NCBI GenBank assembly: GCA_036172245.1
Contig: JAYWIR010000032.1
Location: forward strand, 1-64,000
Direction: 5' to 3'
From: Raillietiella orientalis
Lineage: Eukaryota
Length of the DNA stretch: 64,000 nt
Position numbers and translations under genes: made by a program. The notes beneath the pieces are model-generated. The model saw only the letters and a list, made by a program, of their open reading frames with translations. It did no database searches and was not told where the DNA came from. This document shows positions 510 to 55,990 of the stretch, piece after piece; within the stretch, counting starts at the first letter, position 1; each line of letters starts with the position of its first letter.

Positions 510-3500
510 GTTCAGCGGCGGCGATACCGCCCGTGCGCAAGGCTCTCGCGATCGCTAGGGGAGTTGCTTACGCCTGCGTGGAGGCAGCACTCCAAGAGGC
601 AGCCAAGGCAAGGCCTCTTACATCCGTTACAGCAGCGCCATCTCAGGATGGAAAGAATAACTGCGACGCGAAGGAAGACGGCTGGATGCAGGTGAGAAAG
701 ATCATTAGAAAGAAACCATCAAGGTCTTCGCAGCTCTGTGTGAAGGTGAGTGAGCGAAAGAAACCCGCGAAACCTTTCCAGAAAAAGATTGCGATTCTTT
801 CCACCTGCGCAGTCGTCCTCTCGCGGTTGGAGCGGGAAGCTGCTGCTGCGGTTAAAAGGACGAAATTCCCAGCAGCAGTTGCAGAAAGCGCTAGGAAACA
901 GGCAGCGAACGATTTCCCTTATTCCGGGAAACAGCAGCAGCGCCTTGCAAGCCCTGGACTGTCGGATTCTGATCCAGAGTCCGACAGTAAGAGCACACAG
1001 CGCGACAACCGCCCGAAACCGCGCAATCTCCTCCCGATGACCCGCAAGCGCGTGGTTGCCGAGGAGGAACTGTTGCTGGGTAGCAAAGAGGAGGAAAAGG
1101 ACCTCACCTCTGAGCTACCGGCAAGAAGCAGTGCGGCTTCGAATAGAAATGTCTAGTCTCCGATATCGACCGCTCTGTCTCGTGAACACTTGCCGGACAA
1201 GGCGAGAAATCTGTGCTCACCTTCCCAGCCTTAATGCAGGTAGTCGCCTCTTTTCTTCGATTCAGCGTAGCCTGTTGGAACGTCAATGGGCTGCGCAGAG
1301 ACGGAAAGAGGCGTGACGTGTCAGACAGCCTGCGACATTTCGATTTGGCGATCCTTCAGGAGATGCATTACATCTCCGATGCGGAGGTTGCCGAAATCGA
1401 ACAGCGCGCTGGTGGCACTCTCTACTGGCGAGAAGGTTCTGCACAATCGTGCGGAGTCGGTTTTCTCGTCAATAGTAGGATGGCGGGAGCGGTGCGCAGC
1501 GTTCGATTCGACCAGGAAGGGCGAATGGGCCAACTTGTACTCAAGTGGTCAGATTCAATCGACCTCTTCGTAACGAACGTCTACGCGCCGAGCGGCTTTC
1601 ATCGGCGTGTCGAAAGAATCGAGTTCTTCGACGTGCTGGAGAGCCAATGGCTCAGAAACTTCAAAGCCAGAGTGGCGCATCTGGTCGCAGGGGACTTCAA
1701 CGTCCACCTGCTTTCCAACGAAACGCGGTCCCTGGCGGAACGGTCGCGGGTGGAAGAGGCATGCGCGTCGGTGCACGCGCGCAACCTGGAAGCCGGCGAG
1801 CCTGAAATGGAAAGGTGCGTGGATCAACTCTACCTCGATGAACACCCACTCTTGCGAGTGGGAAGGAGAGGCAGGGTGCCGTCCACGTTATCGGACCATG
1901 ATAGGCTAAAGTTCGAGCAACTCCCTTCGGGCAAGGGACCTCCAAACAATGTTTGGAGGATGCCGGCGGATTGGCTGAGTCACCCGGAAGCGGCTTAGCA
2001 TCTTCGCCAGTTCCTTCGCGGCTTTGCCATCCGGGAAGTCGCAGACTGGGACCATCTTAAAAGATCGGTTCGCGAGGTTTGCGACCGGTTCCCCCTGCAC
2101 CTGCTACCATGCGGCTTCGGGGAAGGCGTTGCCAATAGCAGAGCATTTCTGCAGGCGCGCACCTTTTCGAGAGGTGCGGAAGTCCGGCAACTCGCAGAGT
2201 AGAAGGCGAGGGCCCAGCGCCAGGTCTGGCAGTCTGGAGCGGCTATTCTGCTCGACGACCAAGGCCGGGAATGCACGGCTCCTGACGAAGTGCGGCGAGC
2301 ACAAAAGCGTCACATCTCCTTTCTCTACGCTAATTCCCCCACGGAAAGAGTCCTCTGCGAACTGCTTTTGGCGCTGGCTGCACATGGCATCGGCGAGGAG
2401 GAACGCAATCGTCTCGACGAGCCCTTCACTTTGGAGGAAGTTTCTTCCGCCATCGCAGGACTCAAGAGACGGAAGACGCCAGGTGAGGACGGACTGCCCG
2501 CGGAGTTCTATCAGAGCTTCGGCGGAACTCGCCCCACTGGTTTTTAGAATCTCGACGCTGATGAGGGTGACGGGCGATGTCTCTTCTTCCTTCCGCTCAG
2601 CAAGGGTGCGTCTCTTTCCGAAAGAAGGGGATCTGCGCCATCTCAACAACTGGCGTGCAATCACATTAGTGAATGCGGACGTCAAGTTGTTTTCGAAGCT
2701 GTGGGTCACGCGTTCAGGGAAAGTCGCGGAGTCCAGTGCCAGTGCCGACGGACGGGAGAAAGGCCGGGAGCCTTGGCACTAGCAGCAGATTTGCAGAAAG
2801 CATTCGACTGCGTAAACCAGGAACTCCTCTTGGAGCTCCTGAAGCGTCTTGGGCTTCCGAATCATCTTCTCCTGTACTTGCGCTCCTGCTGGCTCCACGC
2901 GATCATGAACTTGTATTTCAGTGGCTCCCGCGTGTACGGAGTGGCCGTGCGCAGAGGCATCAGACAGGGCGACAGCTTAAGCTCGTTGCTCTTCAGCATC
3001 TACTTTGAGTTGGTGCTAGAAGCGTACAGGCTGACGCTGGCCGTCCTGCTTAGCGCCTCTCCGTGCACTCCGTCCGCGGCAGTATACGGCGACGACCTTC
3101 TGCTTCTGTTGCCCATGTCTACTCCGCCTAACTCGGTCCAAGACTTGTTCGAGCTGATCCGTCGTGGAGCGGGCATGAGCGTTAACAGGACGAAGTGCTC
3201 CGTCGTGCCGATGGGTGCGTCGTGGGAATGGCAGGTCGACTGGATCCGCCTGGGGATCTTTACGGTCAGGTACTTCAAGTACCTTGGCGTACCGTTGGGC
3301 GAATTCTGCTAGTCTGAATCGTGGTCGGTCTGTCTTCAAAAGGCAGAGATGGCTCTAGGCCCGTTCTTGGAAGGGCGTGCATATGGAACACTTTCCTTGC
3401 CCCCCTCCTCCGCCCCTTATTTTTTGTTTGTTCGTCTCCCTATGTGATTAAACTCCGGGCGCAGCGTCTCCTACGTAAGGTCTTGTGGGGCGCTGCGCGA

Positions 3501-4899
3501 TACAGGGTTCGCCTCAAAGATTTGGTGGCGCCATGCCATGACGCACGCCTGGGCATCCTGACCATCCAGAAGATTGGACTGCAAGTGCAGTTCCGGCTTC
3601 TATCCCTATGTGGGAAATTGTGGTTTAGTCACTGGTGTGCTCCGGCTCGCCATATTCTCCAGCGATGTGTCGGCAGTGCAGGATTGCTTTCGTTGCTGCC
3701 GCGCAACCTTCCCCGGAGAACTGAATTTGGCATCCCACTGAGGCACTTGTCTTCGTTGCTGTTAGCCCATTGTAGGATTTCCTGCCGCCCCTCCAATTGG
3801 AATGCTTGGCAGCAGGAAGCTCTGGAGCACTGGACGTCCACTTTGGATGTGCGCCCAGAGCAACTGCGACCCTTAAAGGTCCTCTTACGCAAACCGCTAG
3901 GAGTGATCCTACAGGACTGGTCGCTTTGGTCCCGGATAGTCTTCTCACCCATCGCCGCAGCGCTGTGTGCTCTCAGGGCAAACAACGACAGTAGCCAACC
4001 GGCAAGGTGGAAGTTCTTCTGCAGCATTGCAGGAGTGAGAAGACTGTTGAGCGGCTGCAGAACGAGCGTGTTGGTAGACGCTGCCACTCCACGTTTCCTG
4101 GCAAAGGGACTTCTTCGTTGGAGTGAGGTTCTTGGATTACTCCCCTAAGATCTCGTGGTCCCTTCCTTGTGTGTGGACAGCTCCGTGTTTCCGCTTTGAT
4201 GGAAACAGGATGTTCTTCTTTTTCTGCACTGGGTATTCCAGTGCAATAAGCGCAGAAACTTGGTTACAGGGGGAGTCGTCTCCCCGAACTCCCTCAGGTG
4301 CGGGGCGATAGAATCGCTTACGCACCTGCTCTTTGAGTGAAGTGACTTGCGGGAGTTATGGCGGAGACTTGCTTCGGCACTTCGTCGTCCTCAGGACACT
4401 GCCACAGACCTGCTTCGACGCTTCTTCAGCAAAGACGGACTAGATAAAGGCGCTGTTATCGCAACAATCTCTTGCATCCGCGCCATCGTGATCGCCCGCC
4501 GTAGACTGGAAGGAAGCTCGCCGCGAACGGACGCCGCCAGAATCGCTGCGAACCTCATAAAAGCAGCTGTCAGGTGGCCTCATCTGCTCAGAAAAGTCTC
4601 CAGGGAAGTCGCCATTGTCAAACAGCGCTTCTAGAAAGATTAGGAACGTTTACTACCAAAGATCCCTGAACCCATCCTCCACTGTTTTTTTTTGTTTGTG
4701 CCCTTATGTTTTGTTTATTCTGCAGAACTTTCCCTCCGTTCCTTTCTTTTGGAAGGCATCCTGCGTGCCGGTGATCTTTCGGAACTAAACTTACTGTTTG
4801 GGCGTTTCTTGTGTCTCGAAAGGATGAATTTGCCTTGAAGATTGTGTTTCGTTTTTACAAATAAACGTCCCGGCGCAACCGTATTCAAAACGCAAAAAA
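510..4899 (+). mobile_element. Element A: decayed L1/Tx1-like non-LTR retrotransposon lacking the 5' half of ORF1; its 3' end abuts the RT region of element Q
   Basis: ORF1 C-terminal half (533-1234), APE motifs WNVNG/LQE/NVYAP/AGDFN/SDH (1213-1998), RT motifs DLQKAFD, QGDSLS, YGDD, YLG (2701-3312), C-terminal domain to 4634, and a 3' UTR ending AATAAACGTCCCGGCGCAACCG at 4860. Confidence 0.9.
1234..4634 (+). pseudogene. Element A ORF2 (APE endonuclease-RT), with stops, frameshifts and a short deletion near 2735
   Basis: ORF pieces 1213-1998, 2024-2782, 2701-3312, 3321-4148 and 4347-4634 are collinear with the intact 1191-aa ORF2 at 14204-17779. Confidence 0.9.
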
Positions 4900-7800
4900 G
4901 CATCAGCGATGAAAGTCTTAGCACCAGGCGGACGAGCTCCGCCGGGAAGCACTGAAAGAACTCCGCGGGCAAGCCATCCTCCCCAGGCGCCTTACGCCTC
5001 TTCAAACCCGCTATGGCGGAAGATACTTCTTCCTCCGTGGAGGGTTAATCCAATCTGGCGCGTTCCTCCTCGTCGATAGCAGGGTTACCCGTCGGAAGAA
5101 GCAGCTCGGAGAGACTGCGTTCTGTGGGCTCCTCCGCTTACAACGAGGAGTAGTAGCGGTTGACTACGCGGTGTACTTCGTCTGCAGCCGAGCATTCCTG
5201 GAGTGCGTCATCAAGCAGACAAGCCCCTCCAGACTGCTATACCTGGAGCTCGGCCCTGGTTTTGTACTCTGCCAGGCGCCGGACGTCCGGGCATCAAGAG
5301 AAGGTACGCGCCTGCAGATAGGATCTGCACTTCGCGACACCCTCCCCGAAGCCGCTAGGAAGCAGGTGCACGGGAATCGACAGCAGAACTCGCGGACCGA
5401 TCTTCTCAGATCGTCTCAGTCCTCAAGTTCACGGATGGCGAAGCCGCGGAGATGTTGGCTTAGATGCTGCGCCTCCTCCGAATTGCCAAGCCAGTCGGCC
5501 GGCAACCTCCTGACATTCATCAAACACCCATTGACAGGCGAAAGGAGCTCCAATTCCAGTCTCGGATGGTCCGAAATCGCGGAAGGCAGGCGCTCTCTCC
5601 ATGCTACTCGTGCGAGCAAGTGTTCATCGAGGAACGCATGGTCCGGCGATCTCTTCATCCCGGGCTCAGGAGCAAGCTAGTTTTGCAGGCGCACGAACGC
5701 GCATACCTCGCGTACCAGTTGCTTCTACCTAAAGCGGCATCTCTTCTCTGTTAGCAGGTGTAAGCTTAAGTCTCCTGCAAGGAGGTGCGTCACGTTAGGG
5801 CCGGAGTCAGCAAGCCAGCGGCTGCGCAGGCCACTCAAGAATGCAAGTCGCTGGACGTAATGACGCCGCCGCTCGGCGCGTAGATGTTCGTAACGACCAG
5901 GTCGATGGATTCGCACCACTTGAGCACAAGTTGGCCCACACGACCTTCCTCGTCGAAACAAAGGTTCCTCACCGGCTCCGCCACCCTGCTCCGTACGAGG
6001 AACGCGACTCCGCACGTGTGCGCGGAGCCTTTGCCGCCAGTGTAGCGTCCTGCCCGCGCGCTCTTCCAGATCCGATGCCTACCATTCGGAGATGCTACGT
6101 ATCTCCTGCAGCAGCACCAGATCGAACGCGCGCAAAGCGTTCGCTACCGTCAGCCTTTTGTCAGCATCACGTATTCCGTTGACATTCCAACAGGCCACGT
6201 TGACGCGACGAGCGGACGCGAGTCCATGCATCACTGCTGCGGACATGACGGCGTGCTCCTCGCTTCTTCCGGCGAGAAGTCAGCTGGTAGGAGAGCGGAT
6301 CGAGAAGCAAATTTGCTCCCGTTCGCCGCACATTGCGCCCAGCTGAGTCCTCGGAGCCGCAATCATCGCCTTGGTCTCCGTGCAGGATCCGGAACCACCT
6401 CCGGCAACAGGCTTGTGCTTTCGCACATTATCCCGGCGCGCTACCGGCTTAACCCGGTATGCGCGCTCCATTTGTTTGCACTTGGACTCCACCTCGGAGT
6501 CCGAGTGCCTAGCGCGAGACTGGCGTTTTTCCAGTCTCTTTTTGTTTTGGCAGGTGGAGGTTTGCCCTGCCCGCGCGGGGGTCGTAGCAGTCGCCAACGC
6601 AGCTTCCGTAGCTTTGGCTTACGCAGCCGCTCTCTTGCGCGAAGCGACAGAGACAGAGCACGCAGCCGTAGTGCGTACCTGTGTGCGCACTTTCTTCGGC
6701 GTTCTTCTCTTTTGCCTCTCACCTACTTTAAGGATGGGGAATATTGAAGGGTCAACCTTCTTCTTCCCCTTTGTGGGCGTCCTGGAGACTCGAGTCCAGC
6801 CCGCGTCGGGGACGCCACCCAGGGATGCCGACGCCTCCCTCAATTGTTTGGCAGGAGATGCCGGTTCACGTTTCGCGCTCGCGACGGGAGACGGCTCCGT
6901 CCCCGTTACGCACTCCATCTCCTACTCAGCCGATGCGGGCCAAACGGCGGTCATTGCCGTCGTCATGTGAGGTGCTATTGCAGCCTTCGCTGCTCGTGCC
7001 TTCGGCGTGGAAGACGTGATCTCCACCGCCGTAGGAGGAGACTTCAGTTCAGAGGCAGCTCCGAGGGTAACCGCGCACGCTTTCCCGCGTGCTCCGCAGG
7101 ACGCGCAAGCGGACGCGGACTGATCAGCAGCCTTGATAGAGTGCGTGTCCTCACTCTTGGGCTGCTCCGAAGGGGGTGATTTACAACCACGGCGACGTGG
7201 CATATTTCCCGTCTACGCGGCTGTCTGAGATGGTGGCTTTAATGAAGCAACGCGCCCTTTTTCGCGGGATCCCCACTCGAAGATGCCACGCCCTTCGCGC
7301 ACGATTTCTCCCGTAACACAACGGAGGATCTTTTCGGCGAGGACGGGGTCGATTGTTGGCGGCTTTTCGCCTGCCGCTTTCTCTTCAGCTGGGCGCACTC
7401 TTTGATGGAGTGGCCGAGCTGTTCACAATAGCGGCTGTTGCGTGAACGGCACGTCCACAGACGGTGGCCTTCTGCACCCCAAATGCCGCAAGCCGGTCCC
7501 TGACCGGCAAATTTAAGTTGGACGATCGCATCGCCCACCTGCAAGTGCGGAGGCATTTGCCTCCTATCCGCCATGATGACACGCGCCGTGGCAAATCCGC
7601 TGTGCAGAGATGCAATCCTTTTGATCGGATTGTCTGCTCTCCATACCGCGTGCACCGTAGCGAATTTACTAAATGCAGCGACGAGCAGGCGATCGGGCGT
7701 ATCCACCTGGACGGCGGACAATCGGACCACGAACGATTGCTCCATGACCGACGAAACGACCTCCTTCCCGCGGATATTTAGCAAGGTTCGGAGAAGGAGC

Positions 7801-8249
7801 TGGACTAGAGAAGCCTCTTTGCAGTGCAGCTCCCATTGTCCTAGCGGGTTAACCGGCATGACGGTCAGGAAGCCTTCCTGTCGGACCCCGACGCGCAAGA
7901 GCTCATCCCATAGATTTTCTCCGACACCGTCGGAGATCGCATCACTCACCGGATAGCAGAGCGCAGGCTTGTAGCCATAGGCTGCATATGCCTGCAGCTC
8001 CGCTTCGTCGAGAGGTGCTCCGTTGGCTGCCTCCTCTTTGACGACGGCGGCGAAGCTTCTCGTCGGTGGCGAGACACAAGAATCAGAGGCGTATTGAAAA
8101 TCTGGAGTAGAGTCTCCACTGCCAGTAGCAGCCGACACATCCATGTTTTGCTGCAGGGGCTCTGTGGACATCCCAGTGGACGCACTCGGGCGCAGCACAC
8201 ACAACAAGATGGAAAGGAATCACGCTCGAGGAGCAACACAGAACACGTC
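4900..8249 (-). mobile_element. Element Q: 5' part of a Tx1-like element (5' UTR, broken ORF1, APE and start of RT), cut off at about 4900 by element A
   Basis: 5' terminus GACGTGTTC at 8249; ORF1 7239-8207 with decayed knuckles (CGIWGAEGHRLWTC, CEQLGHSIKEC); TGATG at 6229-6233; KAPGEDGLPAEFF at 4715-5005. Confidence 0.9.
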
Positions 8250-8988
8250 CGTGCAGGCGTTGTCGTGAAGCGTATTCCCAACCGCTGCAAAAAAGAACTC
8301 GTTGCTACCGACAACAACTTCTCTGTTGACTCTGTCAACAGAGAGGGGAGCGACCCGGCGGCGGCGTCCGTCATCGACACCACCATCGATGACGTTGCCT
8401 TCGCGCGAGCCGCTGAAGAGCTGGCTGCCTCGTTGCAGTCAGAACCCTTCAAGGCTGGCAAGAAGGCCGTAAGGCGTCCGGCCTTCCCTGAGGAGTTCCC
8501 CACTTCCGACCCCGAGAAGAAGGCCAGAAGCGCAGCCTCCGTTTTTACGGCACCGTGCAAGAAGGCTGGACGTAAGTCCACAAAGCAAAGGAAGCTCGTG
8601 TTCCCCGTCGAAGGGGAAGTGATGGCTTCCGCAAGCGAGGGTGCCATGAGCGTGGGAAACTCTCGGGAACCGTCGACCGAGAGACTCCCACGGACGGACA
8701 CGGAAGGGATGGAGACGGAGGCCGAACAGTTGCCTCAGTTCCTGAGAAGGCCGAAACCCTCATAGACATCGCGCTTGCCTAGCAAGATGCTGGCTTCCCC
8801 ACAGCTCAAATCTTCCCAGCAGTAATGCCGGAAATCTCCTCCCGCCGTCGAATGCGCATCGCCGTTTGGAACGTGAACGGCATGACAGACGCCGTCAGCA
8901 GACGAGACATGGCTGCCCTACTGGAGTCCAACGACCTTGCGCTGCTGAAGGAGATTCACAAGATGTCTGCAGAACAAGCGCAAAAGAC
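8250..8988 (+). mobile_element. Element R: internal fragment (ORF1 C-terminus and first ~55 codons of APE), bounded by insertions Q and S
   Basis: ORF1 motif DDVAFARAAEELAASLQ; TAATG at 8823-8827; MPEISSRRRMRIAVWNVNG...LLKEIH. Homologous to T (30078-30846). Confidence 0.88.
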
Positions 8989-11900
8989 TTCTCACCCGGT
9001 AACGCAAAGGCGTTTACTCCATATAACATAAAGAAAAAACAATTATATAAAACAAACCAGTTGGGAACCAAGCTTTCAATAGCCGGCTGAACAAGAATGA
9101 AAAGAATATTGCTGGCACGCAGGCCAGAGTAACAGTTTTGCGAACGGTGTGGGGGGGCGGGGAACACAAAGAAACCAAAATAAAATAGAAACAATGAATA
9201 ACGAAGACCGGATAAGGGTCTTTGGGATCGCTCTGGGAGACACGGGGATAGAAGCATGGGCACCGGAAATTTTACCAGGCGAACGGGGACGGGATATTGG
9301 TGGGCGAGAGGTCGAAGGGTTTACCGGATTACGCCATTCTCAAAGGTCTGTAAACCGAAGATGTATGCCAGTGATGTCCTCTCCCACATTGTCACAAAGA
9401 TGAGACCACCTTGAAGCCTTTCTTATGAATTGAGCTGCAAGCAGGTGAGCCTCTTTTCGCTGCGCTGACAACTCCAGGGCGTAGCGGGCCTTCACGATAG
9501 CGCGAACGCAACGTATAGTTGCGACAATCCCGCCAAGCGAAAGTCCATTTCTGCTTAAGAAGCGCCGCAGCACATGAATGGCAGTGCCCCCTTGTGGCAT
9601 GATGCCCGAAGTGAGCCTTCGCAACAGTTCCCGGAGGTCACCGCAGTTTAGCAAAAGGTGCGGAAAAGACTCGATCTCCACGCACCTTAAACAGTTTGGC
9701 GAAGCAGCTCCCCCGGAAACGATGCTTCGCTGCCTATTACAGTGTAATGCACAATGATAAAAGAGCAGCACATCTTGTTTCCAATTTAGGGGTTAACACG
9801 GAGCTGTCCAAACAAACGAAGGGAACTACTATCTCATCGGGGAGCACACTTAAATGTTTGCTTCACCGACGGAGGCCCTTCGCCCGATTCCGAGGAGTGG
9901 CGGCTTGCACCAGCTCCTTTGTCGTCCAGCTGACGAGGAGCTTACTGACTGCTTCTATTTTGTAGGAGAACTCCCATTCCGCCAATAGGCAACCGTCGTT
10001 GCTTGTTGTGAGGGCAGATAGCGCTGCGGCGAGTGGTTTGTCGGGCAGACTATCCGACATCTTCCTGTCCTGCATGACTTCGTCCATTTGATGACTGAGG
10101 AGAAGTCGCAGGCGTCGAAGATCTTCCTGGCGCGTTCCTTCGGAAGCTGCCCATGATGAAAAAGATTCCTGCCGCCATGCATTAATGTTCATGGGGCGGT
10201 AGGAGATCAAACATTGGGCTTTCAGCAGTGAGGACAGCTGCCTCAGCGGGAAGCCAAACCCTATACTGGTGTGCCGAAAGTGGGGTAGCAACGAAAGCAG
10301 TATCTCGCTTCCCGTGCAGCGCCTCAGTATAGGGCGTGCGGGTAAGCACCACGGCGTACACCACAGCTAGGCACAGAGCCGCAGCATGCGAAACTGCACC
10401 TGCAGTTCGATGCTGTTTAAGTCGAGGATGCCCAAGCCTGAATCCTGACGAGGCGCCACCAAGTATTTAAGTCTAACACGGGATCTTGCAGAGCCCCACA
10501 ACGCTTTGCGTAGAAGGCGCTGCGCCCAGACTTTGACTTCCTGGCGAATGGATAAACAAAAAACAGAGGGCAGCGGCGGGGGGGAACGAAGGTGTTTCAG
10601 ATGCAGGCCCAATCCGGCAAGACCAACTCGCCTCATCAGAACGCGCCAAGTGAACGCTCTGCCTTCCAAAGGCAGTCCGACCACGCTTCTGAGATGCAGA
10701 ATTCGGCCAACGGCACCCCAAGGACATGAAGTACCTGCCCTTGGGGATCTTCAGACCGATCCAGTCGGACTGCCCCTCCCACGTTGCACTTACTGCAACA
10801 ACCATACACTTACTCCTCTGAACGCTCACGCAATCACCGCGACGTATCAACCTAAAGAAGTCTTCAAACGATGTCGCCGATGTGGACATGGGAAACAGGA
10901 GTAGCAGGTCGTCGGCATAGGCTTCCACAGCCGGCGTACCTGAAGAGAAGCTCGGCAGGTTGAATAGCGTCAGCCTGTAAGCCTTAAGCACAAATTCAAA
11001 TCAGATGCTCAAGAGCAGCGGGCTTAAGCTATCACCCTCCCTAATTTCTCGTCGTGCCGGCACTTCGTATAGGCGACAGCCACTGAAAACAATTAATGTA
11101 ATTGCGTGACGCCAGCAGGAGCGCAAGTACGCCAACAGGGATGCCGGAAAACCCAGACGTTCCAAAAGCTCAAGAAGAAGCTTTTGGTTCACGCAATCGA
11201 AAGCTTTGTTCAAATCGACGGCAACCGCCAAGGCTCCCAGAGTCTCCCTTTGCGTCCTGCGCCTCCGTCGGTGAGAGATTGAAGGCGTCGCTTCCGCACG
11301 ACGATCCACCGCCACACGATGCTGAAATTGCAGTTATGTGCGGATGAACAAGAGATTTGCGTCCATGGACCGCCCAGGAACAGCGTACGTCTGCTCCGGA
11401 CTTAGCAAGGATTCCGCGATCCTACCCATCCGCGCCACCCAAAGTTTCGAGAACAACTTGACGTCCGAATTCACTAATGTGATCGGACGCCAGTTATTCA
11501 GTTGGCGCAAATCTCCGCCTTTCGGCAGTAGACGCACCTTCGCTGAGCGAAACGAGGCGGGGACATCACCCGAGTCTCGCATCAGCGACGAGAGTTGGAG
11601 CACCAGGGGGATGAGCTCCGCCGCAAAACACTGGAAGAATTCCGCGGGGAGCCCATCTTCGCCTGGCGCTTTTCGTCTCTTGAGCCCCGAGATGGCCGAC
11701 GAAATTTCCTCTGCCGTGAAGGGCTTATCAAGACGTGCGCGTTCCTCCTCGTCTACAACAGGTGCATCAATCGGCAGAAGCAGCCGGGAGAGGCTGCGTT
11801 TCATCGGTGCCTCTGCATACAGAAAAGAGTAATAGCGCCTGATTATCCGTCGCTCGTCGGCTAGAGCCGAGCATTCGCGGTCCTGGTCGTCGAGCAGAAC

Positions 11901-19680: not shown

Positions 19681-19786
19681 GTTGCACTATGCTACTTGGC
19701 AGATTGCACAGGAACTTACAATTGCGAGCAAAGACGCAGGCACAAAGTTGCCCGATCGTTGGCGCGGATAGATGCGGAAACACATC

Positions 19787-45605: not shown

Positions 45606-45613
45606 TGGTGTTG

Positions 45614-47359
45614 TTATGGTGGGGTGGAAGAAACCGCCTCCTGTTCAGAAGACGGGTGGTCCGGGTCCATGTCGTTGGAGTGTTCAGGGGCATCGCTTAC
45701 TCCGTCGGCCGTGGACTGTGTTAATAGTTGGTAAAGGATGCTCTCAGGCACGGAGTCGCATTGTGCAACGCACATGGACTCTTCCTCGCTGTCAGATGCC
45801 ATTTCAACCTCTTCCTGAGAGGTGACAGCACGCCTACGAGCACCTGTTGCATTTTTATGTTTTCTCTTCGGCAAGCCAACGGAGGGCGAGTTCCCGCTTT
45901 CGGCGTCAGACTCGGAAGTTTCCGGGTCTTTTGCCGTAGCCGGGCGTCGAACGGCCTTCTTCTCGGCCTTGACGGGCTGCCTCAGGAAGGCAGCCAACTC
46001 TTCCGCGGCTTGCGCGAAGTTTGCATCAGAGATGCGTTCCACGTCATCACGGATTTCGTCGCCTGTTGGCGAGTCGGGTGACGTAACAACCGATTCGATA
46101 GCGGCAACTGGCGCGCTATCGTTCGGAACCGCAGCGGCTGAGCTTTCGCTCGCCGCTACAACGCTTCCAGTGGACTGGACTGGAACAATAGATTCGATCG
46201 CGGCAACGTGTGCCGCGCTTTCGATCGCGACCGTAGCGATTTCGCCGCACGAAGCCGGAACCGCTTTATCGATCGACGCCGCGGGTGCGGTATCGATCGA
46301 TGGCTTGCTGGTGGAAGCCTTCGCGGGAACGCGATCGATGTGCACGGTGGAACGGCGGACGGTTTTTTCCACCATTTTCACCGTTTTCTTGGGGGCCTTA
46401 CCTTTCCCTTTGCTTTCCTTCTTTTTCACCAACTGCCAACTGTTTTCGGCGACAGTTTCGCCTTCCTCCGGTTTTTGTTCCACTGGCGTCGATATCTCGC
46501 CTGTCTGGGAGGTTTCACTCGATTGGGGATCCTGTTTGTCCGGTTCCTGTGGCGACTCTGTTCTCTTGTTGCCAACAGGAGTGGAAGCAAAACGAAGAGG
46601 GCACACCTTTCTTACGTGGCCCTTGTTACCGCAGCGTAGACACACGATGTTGGGGCACCTCCGTTTAAGGTGCCCTGTAGTCTCGCAGTTTCCGCAGAAT
46701 TTGGGTTTCCCTATGTACCACAGATCAATGTATTCTTCATCGACCTGAAGTCGGTGGGGTAAACCACTATCCTCGCGGACTGTCACACGCGCGGCGGCAT
46801 AGCCACTGAACGCCCTAGTATAGCCCAGGGTGTTCGGCTTAGCCCACAGAGCGTGGACGGTCCCGTACTTTTCCAGTTCCTGCCTAACGGCATTTTTCGC
46901 CATTCGCATCGTCAACCCGGTCAGGTGGATGACGATCGATTTGTCGGCAGTAAACGGGAAGATCCTTCTCCCGTTCACGGTCACCGGGCATCTCAGCAAC
47001 TGCTGAGTCATTCCTGCAGTTTTGCAGTTCAGCTCCACTAGCTGACCGCCACTGCGAACGGAAAGGCCGAGAACTTCTACTTCCGGCACTTTCAGTTTTT
47101 TAAATTCCGCGGCAAACGTTCTCAACATCGCGGGAGAATAAAGCCCACCTACCTTATACAGTAGGGCCGGATTATATCCGTGGGCCTCATAGGCCCGCTG
47201 TTCCTCGCATGGTGGCGGCGCGGGAGCCGCCACCACCGCACTCCAAGACCTCGCCGGGGCGGGGGACGAATATGTGGGGGAGATGGCCCCCACATCCATG
47301 GGCTGAGGGGACGAGGCACGCCCGTCCCCCTTTTCCGCATTGGCGGTGTCCTCAGGCAT
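45614..47359 (-). CDS. X ORF1: intact gag-like protein (~581 aa) with two CCHC zinc knuckles
   Basis: Open from ATG 47359 (MPEDTAN...); CGNCETTGHLKRRC and CLRCGNKGHVRKVC; Tx1-type ORF1 layout. Confidence 0.9.
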   Translation of the reverse strand: MPEDTANAEKGDGRASSPQPMDVGAISPTYSSPAPARSWSAVVAAPAPPPCEEQRAYEAHGYNPALLYKVGGLYSPAMLRTFAAEFKKLKVPEVEVLGLSVRSGGQLVELNCKTAGMTQQLLRCPVTVNGRRIFPFTADKSIVIHLTGLTMRMAKNAVRQELEKYGTVHALWAKPNTLGYTRAFSGYAAARVTVREDSGLPHRLQVDEEYIDLWYIGKPKFCGNCETTGHLKRRCPNIVCLRCGNKGHVRKVCPLRFASTPVGNKRTESPQEPDKQDPQSSETSQTGEISTPVEQKPEEGETVAENSWQLVKKKESKGKGKAPKKTVKMVEKTVRRSTVHIDRVPAKASTSKPSIDTAPAASIDKAVPASCGEIATVAIESAAHVAAIESIVPVQSTGSVVAASESSAAAVPNDSAPVAAIESVVTSPDSPTGDEIRDDVERISDANFAQAAEELAAFLRQPVKAEKKAVRRPATAKDPETSESDAESGNSPSVGLPKRKHKNATGARRRAVTSQEEVEMASDSEEESMCVAQCDSVPESILYQLLTQSTADGVSDAPEHSNDMDPDHPSSEQEAVSSTPP

Positions 47360-47440
47360 TTCTGCCTGAAAAACACCGCTCAAACACCACACAACCTACA
47401 ATCTCGCGCTAAAACGCAGGAGCAGCAAAAGAAACACGTC

Positions 47441-48656
47441 TGCCGTCACTGCGGGCACGACCGGCTCAGGATCGACGGTATCGATCGCCTTTACCGTTAC
47501 TTTCTTTACGGCTCTGGCGATCGAGACGCGTTCGATCTTCACCGTACACGCGCGGACGACCGGTTTCTGCTTTTTCGGCGCCGCCTTGTTTATCTTTTTT
47601 GCCTCCTTCTTCTGGGGCTTCTTCCTTTCTACCTTTTGCCAACCTTCCTCGGTCTCGGCGCTTTCTCCAGCTGGTTGTTCGCTGGTGGATGCCTGAGTAG
47701 CGGGTTGGTCGGCAGGGCGGGATTCTGCCAGTTGTTGGCTTCGGTCCTTTTCCTTCGGCGTCTCTTCCTTCCTCGCGCCTGACGGAACGGACCTTTTTCG
47801 GTTGGGGCACATCCGCCTGATGTGCCCCTTCTCCCCACAGCCCAAGCACACGATGTTGGGGCATTTCTTTTTTAAATGCCCCGACACCTGGAAAAAGCCG
47901 CAGTATACGGGTTTCCCCACATACCACAGGTCGATCTCCTCCTCCCCGACCTGCAGTCTGTGGGGTAGCCCACCCTCGGCACGTACCGTCACGCGCGCAG
48001 CGGCGTAACCACTAAATGCCCTGGTGTAACCCAGGACATTGGGTTGTGCCCACAACGCGTGAACGGTCCCGAACTTCTCTAACGATTCTCGCACGGCGCT
48101 CTTTGCCATGCGCATCGTTATGCCGGTCAAATGCACCACGATGGAGTTGTCCGCCGTGAACGGGAAGATCCTTCTCCCGTTCACGGTCACCGGCAGGCGG
48201 AGCAGCTGCGGAGCCATCCCTGCAGATTTGCAGTTCAGCTCAACCAGCTGCCCGCCACTCCTAACCGAAAGCCCGAGGACTTCGTCCTCCGGGACTTTCA
48301 ACTTTTTAAACTCCGCGGCGAACGATCGTAACACCGCGGGGGAGTACAGGCCACCTACCTTGTACAGTAGGGCCGGGTTGTAGCCGTCGGCCATATAGGC
48401 CCGCTGTTCCTCTGCGGGGGGCGGCGCAGGCGCCGCCACCACCGCGCTCCAAGCCCTCGCCGGGGCGGGGGACGATTCCGTGGGGGGGATGGCCCCCACA
48501 TCCATGGGCTGGGGGGACGAGGCTCGCTCGCCCCCCTCCGCCGTCTTTGCGGCGTCCTCGGGCATCTCTGCCCAGGAACAACCGCTCACAGCTGAAAACA
48601 CCGAAAACACTCGCGAGAAAAACGCGGAGCACCACACAAGCACGTCCACCCTCTCA
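47441..48656 (-). mobile_element. Element Y, 5' segment: 5' UTR and N-terminal part of ORF1 (ATG 48565)
   Basis: ORF1 reads ...PEPVVPAVT and resumes across X as AVTSPSADDN (41243-41798); GACGTGCTT near 48646. Confidence 0.92.
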
Positions 48657-49729
48657 GGCGGCGGGTTGAACAGCTGGCGTGACGTCACATCGCATCGATC
48701 CGTCAGCGGAGCGAGTATCGATCGCCGGCACGCGTTTGATGGCCACGCTTCACGCTTTGATTGTTGGGCGTGGCGCGTCCTTCCCCTTGCCCTTCACCAC
48801 TTTCGCCGGTGCGGGCGCGGTTTTCTTGACGATTTTTATTTTACGGGTGACCAGCTGTCAGCCTTCCTCGTCGGCAGTCTTTTCCGGGAGCTCCTGTACC
48901 GAGTCCCTTTCCTGCTGCGCGACTTTTGTCTTAGCCGACGGCTGATCCCCTTTTGTGGGGTTTATTACTATTTTTGCCTTTTCTTCCTTCTTTTGAGGAA
49001 GTTCCGGCGTTGGAGCGACGTTCATCGGGCACACCACTTTCGTGTGGCTCTTCGCGCCGCACGTTGGGCAAACTGCGTCCGGGCACCGCTTTTTCAAATG
49101 CCCGAACGACTTACAGTTTCCACAAAATTTAGGTTTCCCCACAAACAAAATGTCGACGAACTCGTCGCCAATTTGGAGCTTGTGGGGAAGCTGTACGCTT
49201 TCTCGAAGCGTTACGCGCGCGCCTACTCGCCCACTAAATGCACCGTTCACTCCGAAGGTGTTGGGCTTTCTCCACATCGCGAAAACGCTTGCGAATTTTT
49301 CCAGTTCAGCGCGGATGGCGTTCTCATCCATCCGCACTGTTGTCCCTGTTAGGTGGACAACAATGGAGTGGTCCACCGTGTGTGGGAGTAAATTCCTGCC
49401 CTCAAATTGTACGGGCGTGCAGAGCATCTTGTGGGTAAGAGCTGCATCCTTGCAGATGAGCTCGGGCAACTGCCCTCCGCTCCGTATTGACAGGCAAAGA
49501 ATTTCATGGTCGGCAATGCCCATCTTTTTGATGGCATTGCCGAATTTTCGCGCCCGTAACGGGGAATATAAATTTCCTACCTTGTACAGGAGGGCCGGAT
49601 TGTAGCCCTCCTGGATGTAGGATTGGATTTCGGCGGCGACATCGGGCGTTTCTTCCGCTGCCACGGCGCTCTAGGCCTTCGCCGTAGTGGCGGGTTCAGA
49701 AGTAGTGGTGGGGTGTGATCCCACCTCCA
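48657..49729 (-). mobile_element. Element Z, 5' segment: N-terminal ORF1 (broken); extreme 5' end lost
   Basis: YNPALLYKVG...CGNCKSFGHLKKRC, CPTCGAKSHTKVVC; reads ...AVQPAA and resumes across Y as QSAAAPTPT. Confidence 0.88.
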
Positions 49730-51205
49730 GATCTAGGATCCGCCTCAAAGATTTGGTTGCTCCGCGTCGGGATGCTGGTTTGGCTATCCTGACAATGGAG
49801 CGAATCGTTCTGCAGGTTCATTTCCGACTGCTAACACTGTGTGCCCAGCTATGGACATCCCCCCTGTGTGTGCCAGCTCGCATTCTCCTGCGTAGATACG
49901 CCGGCAGCGGAGGATTTTTCTCGCTTCTGCCGGGCACTCAATGCAGGAAGCGGGGTTTTGGGTTTCCATTGCGGCAGTTGACCGCACTTCTGGAAGCTCA
50001 CACCTGCATCTCCTGCCGCCCAATGAACTTTCAAGATTGGCGGCAAGAGTCTGTTGAATTCTGGGCGGCTTTTCAAGAAATACGCCCTGAAGGTCTTTGC
50101 CCCCTGCTCTAATTTTTGCCACGATCCTTGGAAGAAGTGCTGCAGGACAAGGTGAAGTTTTCTACCCTGGCTGCCACGCCTCTTGCCGCAGCGCTGTCTG
50201 GCCTCAGGGCAAGAAACGATAGTTGCCAACCGGCGAGTTGCGAGGTTTCCTTCACGATAGCGGGAAAAACCAAACTCCTTGGCGCCTGGAAGACGAGTGA
50301 GTTGGCGGACGCCGCCACTCCTCGTGTTACTGCAAAGGGACTCCTCCGGTGGACAGAAGAACTTGCTGTCAGCTTCGGAGAACTTGTAGTCCATGCACAG
50401 TGTGTTGACAGTTCGCTGCTCCCCCTTGCTTGGAAACAAGCCGTGCTGGTTTTCGTTCACTGGGGTTTTCAGTGTAACGAGCGTGGGCATCGTGACTTCG
50501 GGGGACTTGCATCTACGAACTGCGTTCGTTGCGGATCGACGGAGTCGATTCCGCACCTACTTCTGGACTGCAGCGTCCTACAAGGACTATGGCGTAGGCT
50601 GGCTACAGCACTAATGCAACCCGTGGACACCGCAAGAGACTTGCTGCGACGATTCTTTACGCCGATCGGGCTGTCCCTAAGCGCAAGAATTGCTACCATC
50701 GGTTGCATACGCGCGATAGTTTCCGTCCACCAGGCGCTGGTAATCAACGGAGAGCACCAAGAGGTAATCAGCAAAGCATCCTTCTACATAAGAGCATTCG
50801 CTAGATGGCCTTATTTGACAGAAGAGACAAAAAGGAATCTCAACGCAATACACCGCCGGTTTACACACGCTCAGCAGCGGCCAACCCGGTGATCATTGCC
50901 CTCCCCTCCATAAACCAATTTTGTATTTTCTTTTTACACCCGCGTTCCCATAGGCTCCGGAACATATTAGGTGCTCATCGTTTAAATCCCCGTGAGTACG
51001 GAGCCTAACAAAAAACCCGTTACCCTTCCCTCCAGTTTTTGATTTTTGTTTGTTTCCCCTCATTCCTTCCACGTTGCGAGCGGTTGGTTTACCAGGCCTG
51101 CGAGCCGGTAATTTTTCTATGTTCTCTGTCATTTTGTTGGTTGAGGACATTGTCCCTGACCAGTTTATTATTATTAATAAACGCCCCGGCGTAACGGGGT
51201 GGTAA
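49730..51205 (+). mobile_element. Element P: 3' fragment (ORF2 C-terminal domain to 50892, 3' UTR and terminus)
   Basis: RIRLKDLVAPRRDAGL...CVRC..ESIPHLLLDC; terminus AATAAACGCCCCGGCGTAACGGGGTGGTAA. Confidence 0.9.
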
Positions 51206-54200
51206 ATTTCAATCTCGGCCTGCTAACAGGTGAGCCTGAAACACGAGAGAACGCGATGAACAAGTTGTGCGCCGCTATGCGTGCGCGCTACTTGTTCGCG
51301 GGTGAGATGGGAATGGTCCGCAGCATCGACTACGTCTTCCTCGACGCTGACCTGTGTTCACGGGTCGGCAAACGGAGGAAGATTGCCTCGACGCCGTCGG
51401 ACCATCCGCGGCTAATTTTCGAGATGCGGCCTCGCGACAAGGGACCGCCATCCAGGGACTTGCGTCTCCCCGGGGACTGGACGCGCCTATCAGGTGCAAA
51501 GGTACACCTTCGCGAATACCCGAGAAGCGTCACGCTCCCGAATCTCCAGGACTGGGACCTATTTGAGGAATCGGTCCGCGAGTTCTGCGAGCACTTCCCC
51601 CTGGATTGCCTGCCTCCCGGATTTTGCGAGGGTCCTTGCAACCATCGAGCCTATTTACAGGCCCATCGCTACGAGAGAACCCCTAATGTACGTCCCTTGG
51701 CCCACTACCGCGCTGGGGCCGAACGGCAAGCCTGGCAATCCGAATTGGCCAGGTTGCTGGACGACCAGGGCCGGGAATGTTCGTCGCCGGCGTCGATACC
51801 ACATTTCATGCGGAGATTTTTTTCATCCCTCTACGCAAGGACGCCTCCGGACCAAGATGACTCTCGGCGCTTGCTCCCCGATGGTGCCCCGGCAATAGTA
51901 AAAGAGGAGTCGATAAGCCTTGACGAGCCTTTAATTACCGCCGAAATTCTCGCCGATATCAAAAGGCGCAAGAGGTTTAAGGCGCCAGGGGAGGACGGCT
52001 TGCCCGCAATGTTCTTTCAGTGCATCGCGGAGGAGCTGGCACCCCTGGTGCTCGTGTTGACAGGGCTGATCCGAGACGAAGGCGATGTTCCCGCCTCGTT
52101 TCGGTGAGCCAGAGTGAGGCTCCTTTCGAAAGGGGGAGACCTCAGGAAATTGAACAACTAACGTCTGATCACGATCGTGAACGCGGACGCCAAGTTGCAA
52201 GCAGGGCTATGGGATTCGCGTTTGGGGCAGGTGGCAGAATCCGTAATTAGCCCGTAGCAGACTTATGCTGTTCCTGGGAGGAGTATGGATGCCAACCTCT
52301 TCATCGCAAGCTCATGGGTGCACCTGCAGAGAAGAGAAAAGAAAGGGATAGGGAAAGTAGGCAACCCTACATTGGGGCCGCCAGCCGGGCTTGGAAGCGA
52401 CCCCCGGGCGGGGAACGAGGCCCTAGCGATCGCAGTCGATCTCCCTAAGGCGTTCGACTGTGTAGACCAGGACATCCTATAGGAGCTCCTAGGTCGCATG
52501 GGCTTCCCACCATCCTTGATTTCCTACCTGCGCTCTTGCTGGCGGAACGCAATAATTTCGAACCTTTTCAGCAGTCAAAAGGTGCATGCTGTGCCGGTGC
52601 GGCGTGGCATACGGCAGGCAGAAAGTCTCAGTCCCCTGCTCTTTAGCTCCTACTTTGAGTTGGTGCTGAGAGTGTACAGGGTGACTTTGGCCCCCTTGCC
52701 GAGCTCGTGCCCCGGCACGCCCGCAGTAAGTGTTTATGCCGACGATCATCTGCTCCTGTTACCTATGTCCACCCCGGCGAAGGCGGTCGGAGTTTTCTTC
52801 GACCTGCTCAGCCGCGAGACCGGACTGCAGGTGAACAGGGCGAAGTCGTCGGTGGTGCCAGTTGGTGCGACGTCAGCAGGGTCGCAGGACTAGGTCCGTT
52901 TGAAGATCCCCACGACAAGGTGCTTCAAGTACCTTGGTGTGCCGTTGGAAGAGTTCTCCCCTGCGAAAGCGTGGTCCAGCTGACTCTAAAAAGTCGAGAC
53001 GGCGATCGGCTTGTTCCTGGAAAGCAAGTTTCACTTGCCGGAACGAGCCGCGGTTTGGAACGCCTTTGCGGCCCCTATCCTCTGCCCCTTGCTTTTTGTT
53101 TGCCCTGCCCTAGGAGTAGTTAAAAAGTGGACGAAGGACCTCCTTCGCATCGCCCTTTGGGGCAAGGGGAGGCCCCGATTCCCTTTGAAGGACCTTTGCG
53201 CTCCTCGTCGGGACGGCCGAGTTAACCTTCTGACGCTGGAGCGCCTGGAGAAACAGCTGCGATGGCGTGCCCTCGACATCGCAGCGAAGATGTGGAGCAC
53301 CCCGTGGTGCATTCCGGCTCGCTTCCTCGCCAGTCGTATGTCCCGGTGCGAGGGACTTGCGTCTTTTCTTCTGTGCCCCGGCCGAAAGATCAAAAGATGC
53401 GGCCTACAGCTCCGCCGCAAGGCATCGTTGGCTATGGAGAACAGCTGGATGGTTTGCTGCTCCGCCTACTCCTCCGCCTGGCTGGAGAAGTACATCGGAA
53501 CGTGGGCTGTGGTGAACCAGAGAAGCCACGTAACGTGGAATCGTCTCCGATGCGGGCTCTACGCCCGCTGCACTCTGAGGAATCTCTTGGAGAATCCAGC
53601 TAGAAGCACGTGGGCAGAGGCAACATGCCTGGCTGCGGCGCTGATCTTCCAGAGGAGGGAGCTTCACAGCAGTCGGACGCCAAGGTGGCAAGTCTCCTGC
53701 TGCATCGAGGGAGGGGAGAAAGGAATGAGCGGCTGGACCATGGGTCAACTGGCGGACGCCACGACCCCGAGCGTCCAGCCGCGAGGATTAAGAAGATGGG
53801 CGAGCTACTGGCCATCCCTATGGATGTACTGAAGTGGCCCCCGCTTCTTCAGGAATCCAGGATCCTGCCCCTTAAGTGGAAAGAGTCGGCGTTGCTGTTG
53901 TTGCATTGGGGTCTACCCTGCAACGCGCGCCGCTTCCACTGGACGAGGGGAGCTGTGGATCCTGCGTGTGCCAGGTGCGGGGAGCGGGAGTCGCTTCCCC
54001 ACCTTATTGTGGATTGTGCTGCCCTCCGTCCCCTTTGGGAACGGTTTGGGAGGACCCTCGGTCTCCCTACGGGCAGTTCCCCTAGAGACGTTCCTCGGCC
54101 CCTCTTCGTGAAGGAAGCCCTGCAGCCAGCCGCAGCCCTTGCAGCCTTGTGCTGCATCCGAGGAATCGTGGCTGCATAAAGCGACACCAACAAGGAAGGA

Positions 54201-54550
54201 GTGGGTCAACAGGCGAGGGATGTCATCCCATATGCCCAACGCTTCTTGCGGAGAGCTGCTGGATGGCCCCAACTAGGGAACATACGGATGGACCTCGAGA
54301 GCTTCCTTCAACGGATGGGCCTCCTCTCAGCGAACAGTGATCCCTTCCCTGCCCTGCAACCTCTTTTGTTTGTTTGCGTTTTTATTTTTACTTTTGTTAT
54401 TTCCCCATCCACTCTCGTTGCTGGGGAGTGCCACGCCGGGCTGCGTCCCGGCGTCCCTATATGTCCCGTGCATAAGGCCGTGAGCGTGGCCTGGTGCCGT
54501 AATTGTAGAGTGTTTTATTAATATACGCCCCGGGCGTCCCCGGGTGGCAA
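51206..54550 (+). mobile_element. Element V: ORF2 pseudogene from mid-APE (FNLGLL) to 54340, plus 3' end
   Basis: ORFs 51199-52107, 52285-52482, 52498-52893 (YADD), 53011-53832 and 53610-54179; terminus ACGCCCCGGGCGTCCCCGGGTGGCAA. Confidence 0.92.
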
Positions 54551-55990
54551 CTCCAAATGCTCGGTGCAGGCGGTGCAAAGGGAAATCCTCGCAGAACTCG
54601 CGGACCGAGACCTTCATGCGGTCCCAATCTTCGAGGTTGCGGAGGATGACGCCTCTCACGAACTGACGGAGATGTTCCGCCGCACCGGAAATGCGCGTCC
54701 AGTCCCCTGGCATACGCCACGCCCTGGATGGTGGTCCTTTGTCGCGTGGCATAATTTCGATTATCAACCGGAAGTGGTCCGATTGCGTCGTCGGAATTTT
54801 CACTCGTCTGCCGACCCGTGGGCACAGGTCGGCGTCAAGGAAGACGTGGTCTACGGTTTGGGCCATTTCCGGTAGGTCCCCCAGCAAGTTGCGCGTACGC
54901 ATAGCGGCGCACAACTCGTTGGTTGCGTCTTTTTGCCTGCATGGCACACCTGAGAGCAGGCGGATGTTGAAATTACCACCGATCAGATGTGGCTTGCGTA
55001 CGTTTGTATCTGCCAGCCAGTCGCGCTTCAGGATTTCGAGGAACCGGGAACGTTCACCGTACCCGCGTCCTCTGCTCGGAGCGTACACATTAGTCACGAC
55101 AAGGTCGATCGAGTCGGACCACCTAATTATAAGCTGGCCAACCCGACTGTCGTTGTCGAATCGTACGTCCTTGACGAAGGAAGCGACTGCTGGCTTCATA
55201 AAAAACGCGACGCCACAGGTGTTGCGAGCGCCGCATTGCCCAAACAGACGACCCCCTGCGATCCTTTCGATCTCCTGGGCGTTCTCCGCGGTGATCACGT
55301 GGATCCCCTGCAGGAGTGCCAGGTCGAAGTCACGCAGAGTGTCGGCCGTGTCCCGCCTGTTGCCGTCATCGCGCAGCCCGTTGACGTTCCAGCAGGCTAC
55401 GCGTATCCTACGGCGACAGGCAAGTCCAGGTGTTAATCCTGGGAAATTGACAATCGGGCTCCCGCCATCTTTTCGGGCGGGACGCTAGGAGGAGGGGGAG
55501 CGTCGCGCATTGCATCTCCCTCCTCCATGGAGGACGATTCGTCGTCGGGGCCTTGCAGAGGAAGTAGAGGTTCACCCACCTGCACATCCTCCTCCATGGG
55601 GGTCGCTAGCTGCACGGTGTCGGGGAATGAGATATTCCCACCCTCGCCTCCTACGCTGCCGGCTTTCCCCTCGGGGGCCGATTCATCCGCCTCTTTATTG
55701 ATCCGTATGCGCCTCCTGGGATTCTGAGACTTACGTCCCGTCTTCTTTGGTAGCGCCTCTGCTGAGGAGGACGCCCTTTCGACGTCCGAATCGGCCTCAC
55801 CTGCCTCCGGAGCCTTCCTCGCGGCCGGCCTTTGCAAGGCTTTTCGCGAGTTCTTTTCACGGCCTTGCAATTCAGCATCGAGTTCTTCCACTGCCTGCTG
55901 GAAGGCGGCCTCCTCGATCGCGTCGAGCGCGGCGCGCGGTTCCCCCTCTGTTTCGCCAGAGGGTTCACCATGGACCGTCGAGGATTCGGC
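54551..55990 (-). mobile_element. Element U: ORF1 C-terminal part and APE domain, cut off by V; upstream boundary uncertain
   Basis: WNVNGLRDDG, NVYAP, GGNFN, SDH in 54551-55432; ORF1 tail 55433-55891 (MEELDAELQ...KALQRPA). Confidence 0.85.

Follow-up and report, generated by a model that had tools for sequence, protein, structure and literature searches.

A 55-kb array of nested LINEs of one divergent lineage, with repeated use of insertion sites inside related elements

Why should 55 kb of a genome consist of a single lineage of long interspersed nuclear elements (LINEs) inserted into one another? The question is raised by the first 64,000 nucleotides (nt) of contig JAYWIR010000032.1 (Raillietiella orientalis, assembly GCA_036172245.1), a stretch referred to here as the window. 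A first-pass annotation of its letters had described about 15 copies with essentially no spacer and no other recognisable transposon class at 510..55990. The array is present, although its start lies at 545, directly after a copy of the U4 small nuclear RNA (snRNA), and its end near 55975. It is judged probable, though well short of assured, that LINEs of one divergent, L1/Tx1-like lineage form a nested cluster here, with sequence-driven self-attraction of insertions and later remodelling.

A map constructed with tblastn and self-blastn placed 15 elements in 18 segments, which tile 545–55975 with zero spacer and belong to one lineage encoding an apurinic/apyrimidinic endonuclease (APE) and a reverse transcriptase (RT) (Table 1). 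With the intact open reading frames (ORFs) 1 and 2 of copy H1 as tblastn queries, LINE fragments of 29–100% amino acid (aa) identity were found on both strands from 1201 to 55451. Direct similarity, at the protein level or by self-blastn, covered 96.9% of 545–55975 versus 10.2% of the right flank, the former figure being partly circular as some query ORFs originate from the array. The eight stretches of the array without direct similarity (76–329 bp) were all 3′ untranslated regions (UTRs) or ORF1 linkers of mapped elements, and five of these terminate in the conserved 3′ hairpin of the lineage. Pfam matches were obtained for 17 of the 124 array ORFs of at least 130 aa, the families being solely RVT_1, Exo_endo_phos, zf-CCHC and zf-RVT; these 124 ORFs gave no sign of an integrase, transposase, protease or RNase H. 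The copy number, the lack of spacer and the absence of a second transposon class that had been claimed are thus borne out.

All 13 junctions reported previously map onto the new junction map, each within LINE sequence (the earlier names A, Q, R, S, H, E1/E2, T, W, Z, Y, X, P, V and U correspond to a, b, c, H3, T, H1/H2, d, b′, 12/e, 11/f, g, 13, 14 and x15, respectively), and all ten 3′ junctions fall in LINE sequence. However, nesting is proven by target-site duplications (TSDs) or split target halves for only three insertions, namely g in 11/f, 11/f in 12/e and H1/H2 in T. Element g is bounded by a perfect 10-bp TSD, 11/f by an 8-bp TSD and H2 by a TSD of 13 exact bp (18/20). The first two of these establish a nest of three levels, in which g lies within 11/f and 11/f within 12/e, with all three elements in one orientation. 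Towards the upstream end the 5′ parts (12, 11, g) are stacked, towards the downstream end the 3′ parts (g, f, e); downstream of g, both f and e begin at the same element coordinate, and the linker, of which 422 bp are found in 11 and 147 bp in f, adds up to the 571 bp seen in g. The downstream copy of the H2 TSD lies between H2 and H1, which indicates that H2 re-used the T site just upstream of H1. By self-blastn, H1 and H2 are 96.0% identical, with H3 at 90–92% to both; b/b′ together with c/d stand at 87%, f/g at 83% and e at 74–75% to f/g, while all remaining element pairs share 64–73%. Over a long period, at least six sub-families, 65–96% alike in DNA, inserted into copies already present through target-primed reverse transcription, leaving TSDs of 8–20 bp.

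Two pairs of independent insertions were found at an identical nucleotide, one at site A (the ‘EIE’ codons) and one at site B (the ‘GDFN’ codons), both of which lie in the endonuclease gene of a relative. At site A, H3 ends (3′ end …CCGGGTGAGAA, 8989) against the EQAQ-EI codons of c, in antisense, and H3 in c has the same register as H1/H2 in T (GAGAA/GTCTTTTGCGC versus GAGAA/ATCTCCCGCGC, with the slash marking the joint). Family H has entered c and T at the same phosphodiester, in antisense, T having been entered twice. As the flanks in c and T are 69.6% alike and the H copies 90–92% alike, these insertions are independent and do not represent a copied composite. It should also be noted that, 20 nt from the site A nick, target c bears GCAGAC (on the H strand), the same six letters with which the H 5′ end begins (8960–8975 and 25743–25755). 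Such a microhomology could determine where the 5′ junction falls and give rise to the 20-bp TSD.

At site B, the 3′ end of element 13 joins 14 at …AAAT/TTCAATCTCGGCCTGCT, in the GDFN codons and in sense orientation, and in a contig of run X1, with an H copy from elsewhere in the genome, an H-type 3′ end is directly followed by TTCAATCTCCGCCTGCT. The latter sequence is identical to the intact GDFN sites of f (40772–40756) and g (45143–45127). This X1 contig, a loose end at 19808, was also considered as a third site A event (‘EQAEIE’, antisense, offset by 6 nt); its 17 letters match the f/g GDFN site exactly, in sense, and it was assigned to site B. At the inferred nick (^), sites A and B have the sequence CG^AT(C/T)TC in common. 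The H/b-type family accounts for four events in the window and one contig from elsewhere, at two sites which have CG^ATYTC in common, with the remaining families using other positions. The idea that H is protected from its own insertions by a synonymous change in the site A that it carries was rejected, as this site reads CGATTTC and fits the motif.

Three more insertions (g, 11/f and b) entered the ORF1 linker. The entry points of g and 11/f lie 16–26 nt apart around the palindrome GTGACGTCAC, which the g TSD overlaps, while in 12 the homologous palindrome is separated by 16 nt from the 11/f TSD. Counted from the sequences, the entry of b in the linker of c is located approximately 150 nt upstream of the conserved AEELAA motif and the break points of e and f 75–165 nt upstream of it. 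The palindrome TGACGTCA was found three times, at 41786 and 48680 in the ORF1 linkers beside the g and 11/f sites and at 57783 in the non-LINE flank.

When 12 events were placed randomly on a 5.8-kb element, 0.06 same-orientation pairs within 5 bp were expected versus the two observed (P=0.0015). Four pairs lay within 100 bp (P=0.028). Overall, the reuse of insertion sites exceeds chance at a P of about 0.002–0.006. The result is positive evidence for a sequence-level site preference of the insertions.

A mechanism that would account for this is one in which the targets favoured by the endonucleases are short stretches that coincide with conserved codons or structured spots within the LINE. 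For the H/b-type family the preferred sequence would be CG^ATYTC, as it occurs in the APE gene at the EIE and GDFN codons, and for the e/f/g family and b it would be the zone around the GTGACGTCAC palindrome in the ORF1 linker. Every new copy would bring new target sites, so that a cluster, once seeded, would attract further insertions and stay LINE-only. A regional bias, be it chromatin, a centromere or selection against insertions elsewhere, probably contributes, and a segmental duplication and deletions would have remodelled the array later.

A number of observations weigh against this explanation. The motif CGATYTC occurs 41 times in the window versus 21.7 expected, or about four times per element, and most occurrences are unoccupied; being short and common, it cannot by itself confine insertions to kin, and a regional factor or selection is probably needed beside it. 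With some four motifs per element, the double use of one is not rare once a LINE is the target. Site A is present but unoccupied in a, d, e, f, x15, H1 and H2. Five junctions occupy unique positions, namely a>b (aa 455), d>T (aa 583), 12/e>b′ (aa 364), 14>x15 (aa ~307) and T>H3 (aa 280). The array context itself biases junctions towards LINE targets, with one junction from elsewhere in the genome among the loose ends listed, and the short contigs of runs X1–X3 neither bridge nor contradict any junction. Non-LINE DNA adjoins copies of the lineage at three places (544/545, near 55975 and 63.2 kb). Finally, the half expected from simple nesting is missing in seven elements (b, c, H3, T, d, b′ and x15). 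The homing to kin proposed in the first-pass annotation is accordingly upheld in part: exclusivity, nesting and the site preference speak for it, while the commonness of the motif, the unique junctions, the non-LINE borders and a composite attributable to segmental duplication do not.

The most serious alternative is a passive pile-up, in which near-random insertions survived only in a gene-poor, recombination-poor domain, possibly a centromere, where this lineage was the dominant or only active transposable element (TE). The five unique junctions are what such a process would produce, and the array edges at the U4 copy and at unique DNA, together with a solo fragment at 63186–63639, represent insertion outside LINEs. 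Two X1 contigs at 27166 also pass from T-like ORF2 sequence into GA-rich non-LINE letters, indicating that relatives of T border non-LINE DNA elsewhere in the genome, and a ‘protected cold spot’ has been offered as an explanation for TE-rich algal centromeres (PMC11005252). Random entry followed by survival does not, however, predict the reuse of identical nucleotides at two sites with a third hot zone, the shared AT(C/T)TC at the TSD starts with CG before it, or zero spacer over 55 kb beside 8 kb of which only 10% is LINE. It is regarded as possible but rather unlikely.

Amplification by duplication, in which segmental or tandem duplication and unequal crossing-over would have multiplied a small number of nested insertions, common junctions then being copied DNA, is an improbable account of the whole, yet it appears to apply to one part. 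The composites b-in-c (4901–8988) and b′-in-d (~30100–33932, opposite orientation) have a common junction, and their b parts are 88.5% and their c/d parts 86.3% alike. Because divergence is near-equal in both parts, a segmental duplication of the b-in-c composite before H3 entered c would fit the sequences. H1 and H2 lie head-to-tail at 96% identity, and the many missing halves show the array to be clearly rearranged, which could likewise be read as amplification. On the other hand, H2 has its own TSD, the flanks of H3 and H1 are 69.6% alike versus 92% for the elements, and the site B pair consists of different elements in different targets. The opposed stacks of 5′ and 3′ parts are also the pattern of nesting and not of tandem duplication.

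An assembly chimera of dispersed repeats is very improbable: it would be compatible with the lack of any X1–X3 contig bridging a junction and with only 22 of the 225 X1 contigs being at least 99% alike, but repeat misjoins make hybrids at homologous positions and not joins of a 3′ hairpin to a TSD at an unrelated coordinate, the split halves of T, 11/f and 12/e resume in register, and the tandem H1 and H2 differ by 4%. Apparent joints in the X1–X3 contigs were rejected as true junctions, as they represent other copies that partly align to two homologous elements.

Returning to the nested cluster with self-attraction, its later remodelling appears to have included deletions, which we infer to have removed many target halves since many targets lack their other half. 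With so many halves missing, no full order of events that is consistent for the whole array was obtained. At the 3′ junction of H1, approximately 91 bp of H1 were lost together with approximately 20–36 bp of T. If fragment 13 is the 3′ part of b′, as it may be, a single deletion of approximately 1.5 kb would have taken aa 365–818 of b′ and the start of the 5′ UTR of 12.

At the left edge of the array, the 5′-truncated end of a (545) abuts nt 1 of the U4 snRNA copy (407–544, minus strand), head to head. As the copy starts exactly at nt 1, it is suggested to be RNA-derived, and one might speculate that the inverted arrangement arose when a second cDNA was primed on U4 RNA during integration of the LINE, in a twin-priming-like manner. 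Positions 1–406 of the window have a GC content of 69.5%, 3.4 copies of a 27-bp repeat (59–150), an open frame rich in Ala, Gly and Thr, and no family match. Possibly the U4 copy interrupts the ORF1 linker of a and this stretch is the upstream piece of that linker, so that the array would continue beyond the window; no TSD was seen and the frames do not join. At the right edge, x15 is truncated in the ORF1 linker near 55975 and is followed by 8 kb of non-LINE, unique DNA. No Pfam family was detected at 0.001 in the 72 ORFs of the flanks. The sole non-LINE hint in the 8-kb right flank is ORF 57366–57668 (minus strand), with a weak match to Myb_DNA-bind_3 (E=0.009) that falls below the cut-off.

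Table 1. Features mapped in the window, from left to right.
Feature	Position	Strand	Details
U4 snRNA copy, full length	407..544	-	Rfam RF00015, 83.5 bits, model 1-138 of 138
Element a	545..4900	+	5′-truncated in ORF1 linker; ORF2 aa 1-1198, frameshifted; tblastn, Pfam APE + RT
Element a, 3′ end	4862 (motif)	+	Hairpin degenerate; abuts b, antisense, at ORF2 aa 455
Element b	4901..8250	-	Complete 5′ end (…GGACGTGTTC), ORF1, ORF2 aa 2-455; 3′ part missing
Element b, 5′ end	8250	-	Sits in ORF1 linker of c; b 88.5% identical to b′
Element c, remnant	8251..8988	+	ORF1 C-terminal part and ORF2 aa 1-65; 86.3% identical to d; cut on the left by b and on the right by H3 at site A (EIE codons)
Element H3	8989..12112	-	5′-truncated at ORF2 aa 280; 3′ end …CCGGGTGAGAA at 8989
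Element T, left half	12113..13938	+	Complete 5′ end (GCAAACGGGTTTT), ORF1, ORF2 aa 1-53
Element H1	13939..19789	-	Both ORFs open; last ~91 bp missing at 3′ junction with T
H2 TSD, downstream copy	19790..19809	-	13 bp exact, 18/20 match; other copy 25756-25775
Element H2	19810..25755	-	Full length, 96% identical to H1; same T site, just upstream of H1
Element T, right half	25756..27300	+	ORF2 aa ~59-583; cut at RT ‘KAFD’ codons by 3′ end of d
Element d	27301..30845	-	Paralogue of c; ORF1 C-terminal part and ORF2, internal deletion aa 349-613; site A unoccupied
Element b′	30846..33932	+	Paralogue of b; complete 5′ end, ORF1, ORF2 aa 1-364; cut by 3′ end of 12/e
Element 12/e, 3′ part	33933..38287	-	ORF1 linker through ORF2 (two in-frame stops) to 3′ hairpin
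Element 11/f, 3′ part	38288..41798	-	ORF2 internal deletion aa 573-811
Element 11/f, TSD CCGCCGCC	38280-38287 and 48657-48664		8 bp
Element g, complete	41799..47443	-	5645 bp; 5′ end GCAGACGTGTTTC, 3′ end …CCGGGTAAAAA; zf-RVT E=1.6e-5
Element g, TSD CGCAGTGACG	47444-47453 and 41789-41798		Perfect 10 bp
Element 11/f, 5′ part	47444..48656	-	5′ UTR, ORF1 N-terminus with CCHC knuckles, part of linker
Element 12/e, 5′ part	48657..49720	-	ORF1 N-terminus and linker; 5′ UTR truncated
Fragment 13	49721..51206	+	ORF2 aa 819-1200, 3′ UTR, hairpin; 3′ end joins 14 at site B (GDFN codons)
Element 14	51207..54551	+	Starts at ORF2 aa 165; hairpin 54522; 3′ end abuts x15, antisense, near aa 307-312
Element x15	54552..55975	-	ORF1 C-terminal part and ORF2 aa 6-307; 5′-truncated in ORF1 linker
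Solo degenerate fragment, same lineage	63186..63639	-	ORF2 aa 992-1138; tblastn

To place the array among known systems, it was compared first with Zepp of Coccomyxa subellipsoidea C-169 (formerly Chlorella vulgaris C-169), for which nested L1-type clusters are described, one per chromosome and GC-richer than the rest of the genome (61% versus 53%; PMC3446292). The array resembles these clusters, by description and not by sequence comparison, in being nested, L1-type and GC-rich (57.8% versus 52.4% in the right flank). It differs in that several sub-families 30–35% apart coexist. Zepp ends in a poly(A) tail, whereas the elements described here end in a hairpin and a short tail. In Chlamydomonas, the L1 LINE ZeppL-1_cRei is described as essentially confined to one CENH3-bound cluster per chromosome (PMC8226300, PMC9940879, bioRxiv 10.1101/2025.03.28.645958); these clusters are reported to be only ~60% ZeppL, a single family, with other TEs making up the remainder, in contrast to ~100% of one lineage with many sub-families in the array. 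LINE/L1 elements are also reported to contribute to Chlorella centromeres (PMC11005252). Nested L1-type clusters as components of algal centromeres are therefore already known. In the parts of the Zepp and ZeppL literature covered, with the original Zepp papers and the supplements outside that scope, no statement was found that these elements enter defined sites within one another. What sets the present array apart is the divergent lineage, the hairpin 3′ end without poly(A), the purity of ~100%, the many sub-families and the reuse of sites, at base level, in the coding sequence of relatives.

Tx1L is a LINE that inserts into the DNA transposon Tx1D. More generally, APE LINEs of the Tx1/R1 clades, such as Keno in U2 snRNA genes, are described as integrating sequence-specifically into multicopy targets, with transposons among the listed LINE targets and tandem insertion at one site known to occur (PMC4640811). 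The APE endonuclease, the multicopy targets and the repeated insertion at one site are shared with the elements of the array; here, however, the targets are related LINE coding sequences, at least three sites are used instead of one, and the motif is a loose one of 7 nt. HeT-A/TART/TAHRE of Drosophila are described as forming LINE-only telomere arrays in a dedicated chromosomal niche (PMC6581046, PMC13534243). Those arrays are head-to-tail terminal additions in one orientation, whereas the orientations in the present array are mixed, the insertions are internal with TSDs, and no telomere-like repeat was found in the 64-kb window.

In the Zepp and ZeppL sources covered, confinement and purity are unexplained, with integration hotspots, a requirement of chromosome function and cold-spot survival as the options given. 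The base-pair-level junctions described here indicate that part of the answer can be a preference for sites carried by the elements themselves. Should kin-targeting hold true, ‘related LINE coding sequence’ would join the list of LINE targets, and a simple self-reinforcing model would be available for the formation of TE-only, centromere-like domains. A bolder version, in an organism and lineage distinct from those of Zepp/ZeppL, would have the sub-family endonucleases evolved to home to conserved codons (EIE, GDFN) and the ORF1 linker of relatives, each insertion disabling a rival and supplying targets, to give a self-renewing LINE-only island which the host may use as a centromere. This version is doubtful and is offered tentatively.

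Regarding the elements themselves, ORFs of 1201 and 1202 codons on the minus strand (14204–17809 and 20164–23772) encode an APE (Exo_endo_phos) and an RT (RVT_1), located in protein P0001 at aa 25–233 and 474–744, respectively, and the same domains occur in other copies. An N-terminal APE with the RT behind it in ORF2 is the arrangement of L1/Tx1-type LINEs. The ORF upstream of ORF2, of 559 codons, bears CCHC knuckles (zf-CCHC), with zf-CCHC present in ORF1 of H, g and 11 and two knuckles per ORF1; its N-terminal domain had no Pfam match. An ORF1 with an RNA-binding N-terminal domain and one or more CCHC knuckles corresponds to the plant/Tx1 type. The C-terminus of ORF2 (P0001) contains a CX2CX7HX4C motif, and zf-RVT (PF13966) scored 25.9 bits in g (E=1.6e-5), just below the cut-off of 27.5, and 15 bits in H1. 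The nearest Atlas clusters have the architecture APE, RT and zf-RVT, the last of these being found in 32–74% of members. Both ORFs (559 and 1201 codons) are open in H1 only. In H2, ORF2 is open but ORF1 is frameshifted, leaving H1 as the sole candidate autonomous copy in the window; the C-terminal Cys/His finger of H2 is altered (20167–20400, minus strand) and zf-RVT was undetected there.

A conserved 5′ end resembling GCAGACGTGTTTC was identified in g (47443), H2 (25755), H1 (19789), T (12113), b (8250) and b′ (30846). The conserved 3′ end consists of AATAAA(C/T)GCCCCGGC-loop-CCGGGTG, forming a hairpin, followed by an A/T-rich tail of 5–10 nt. This hairpin has seven pairs, three of them with compensatory changes, and is kept at the 3′ ends of nine copies, the 3′ UTRs of which do not align in other respects. 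The poly(A) or A-rich tail of L1/Tx1-type LINEs is absent, with no run of A or T of 8 or longer at any 3′ end.

The best match to the lineage among 1.84 billion representatives was a metagenome protein of 619 aa with 59% identity, the next standing at 34%. Among named proteins, the best matches were plant L1-like proteins (24–25%) and a Closterium protein (29%), and these named matches are scattered over eukaryotes (plants, Closterium, turtle, pseudoscorpion and fish). A scan of metagenome contigs gave one locus of 1.2 kb at 35%. The lineage accordingly has no close described relative in the libraries searched. A coccidian origin, considered on account of the GA-rich flanks, was not borne out by PMC9141347 or PMC11828913.

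The window is GC-rich and the CpG dinucleotide is undepleted in it, with an observed/expected ratio of ~1.0 in the array (545–55975), the oldest copies included, and methylation-driven CpG decay has therefore left no sign. No tRNAs were found in the window. Long antisense ORFs of 394–520 codons lie opposite the LINE ORF1/ORF2 at 17696–18880, 23659–25221 and 37120–38643 (all on the plus strand); none has a Pfam match and they are probably a by-product of GC-rich coding sequence. The solo fragment of the lineage at 63186–63639 (minus strand) lies in AT-richer non-LINE DNA, 7 kb outside the array.

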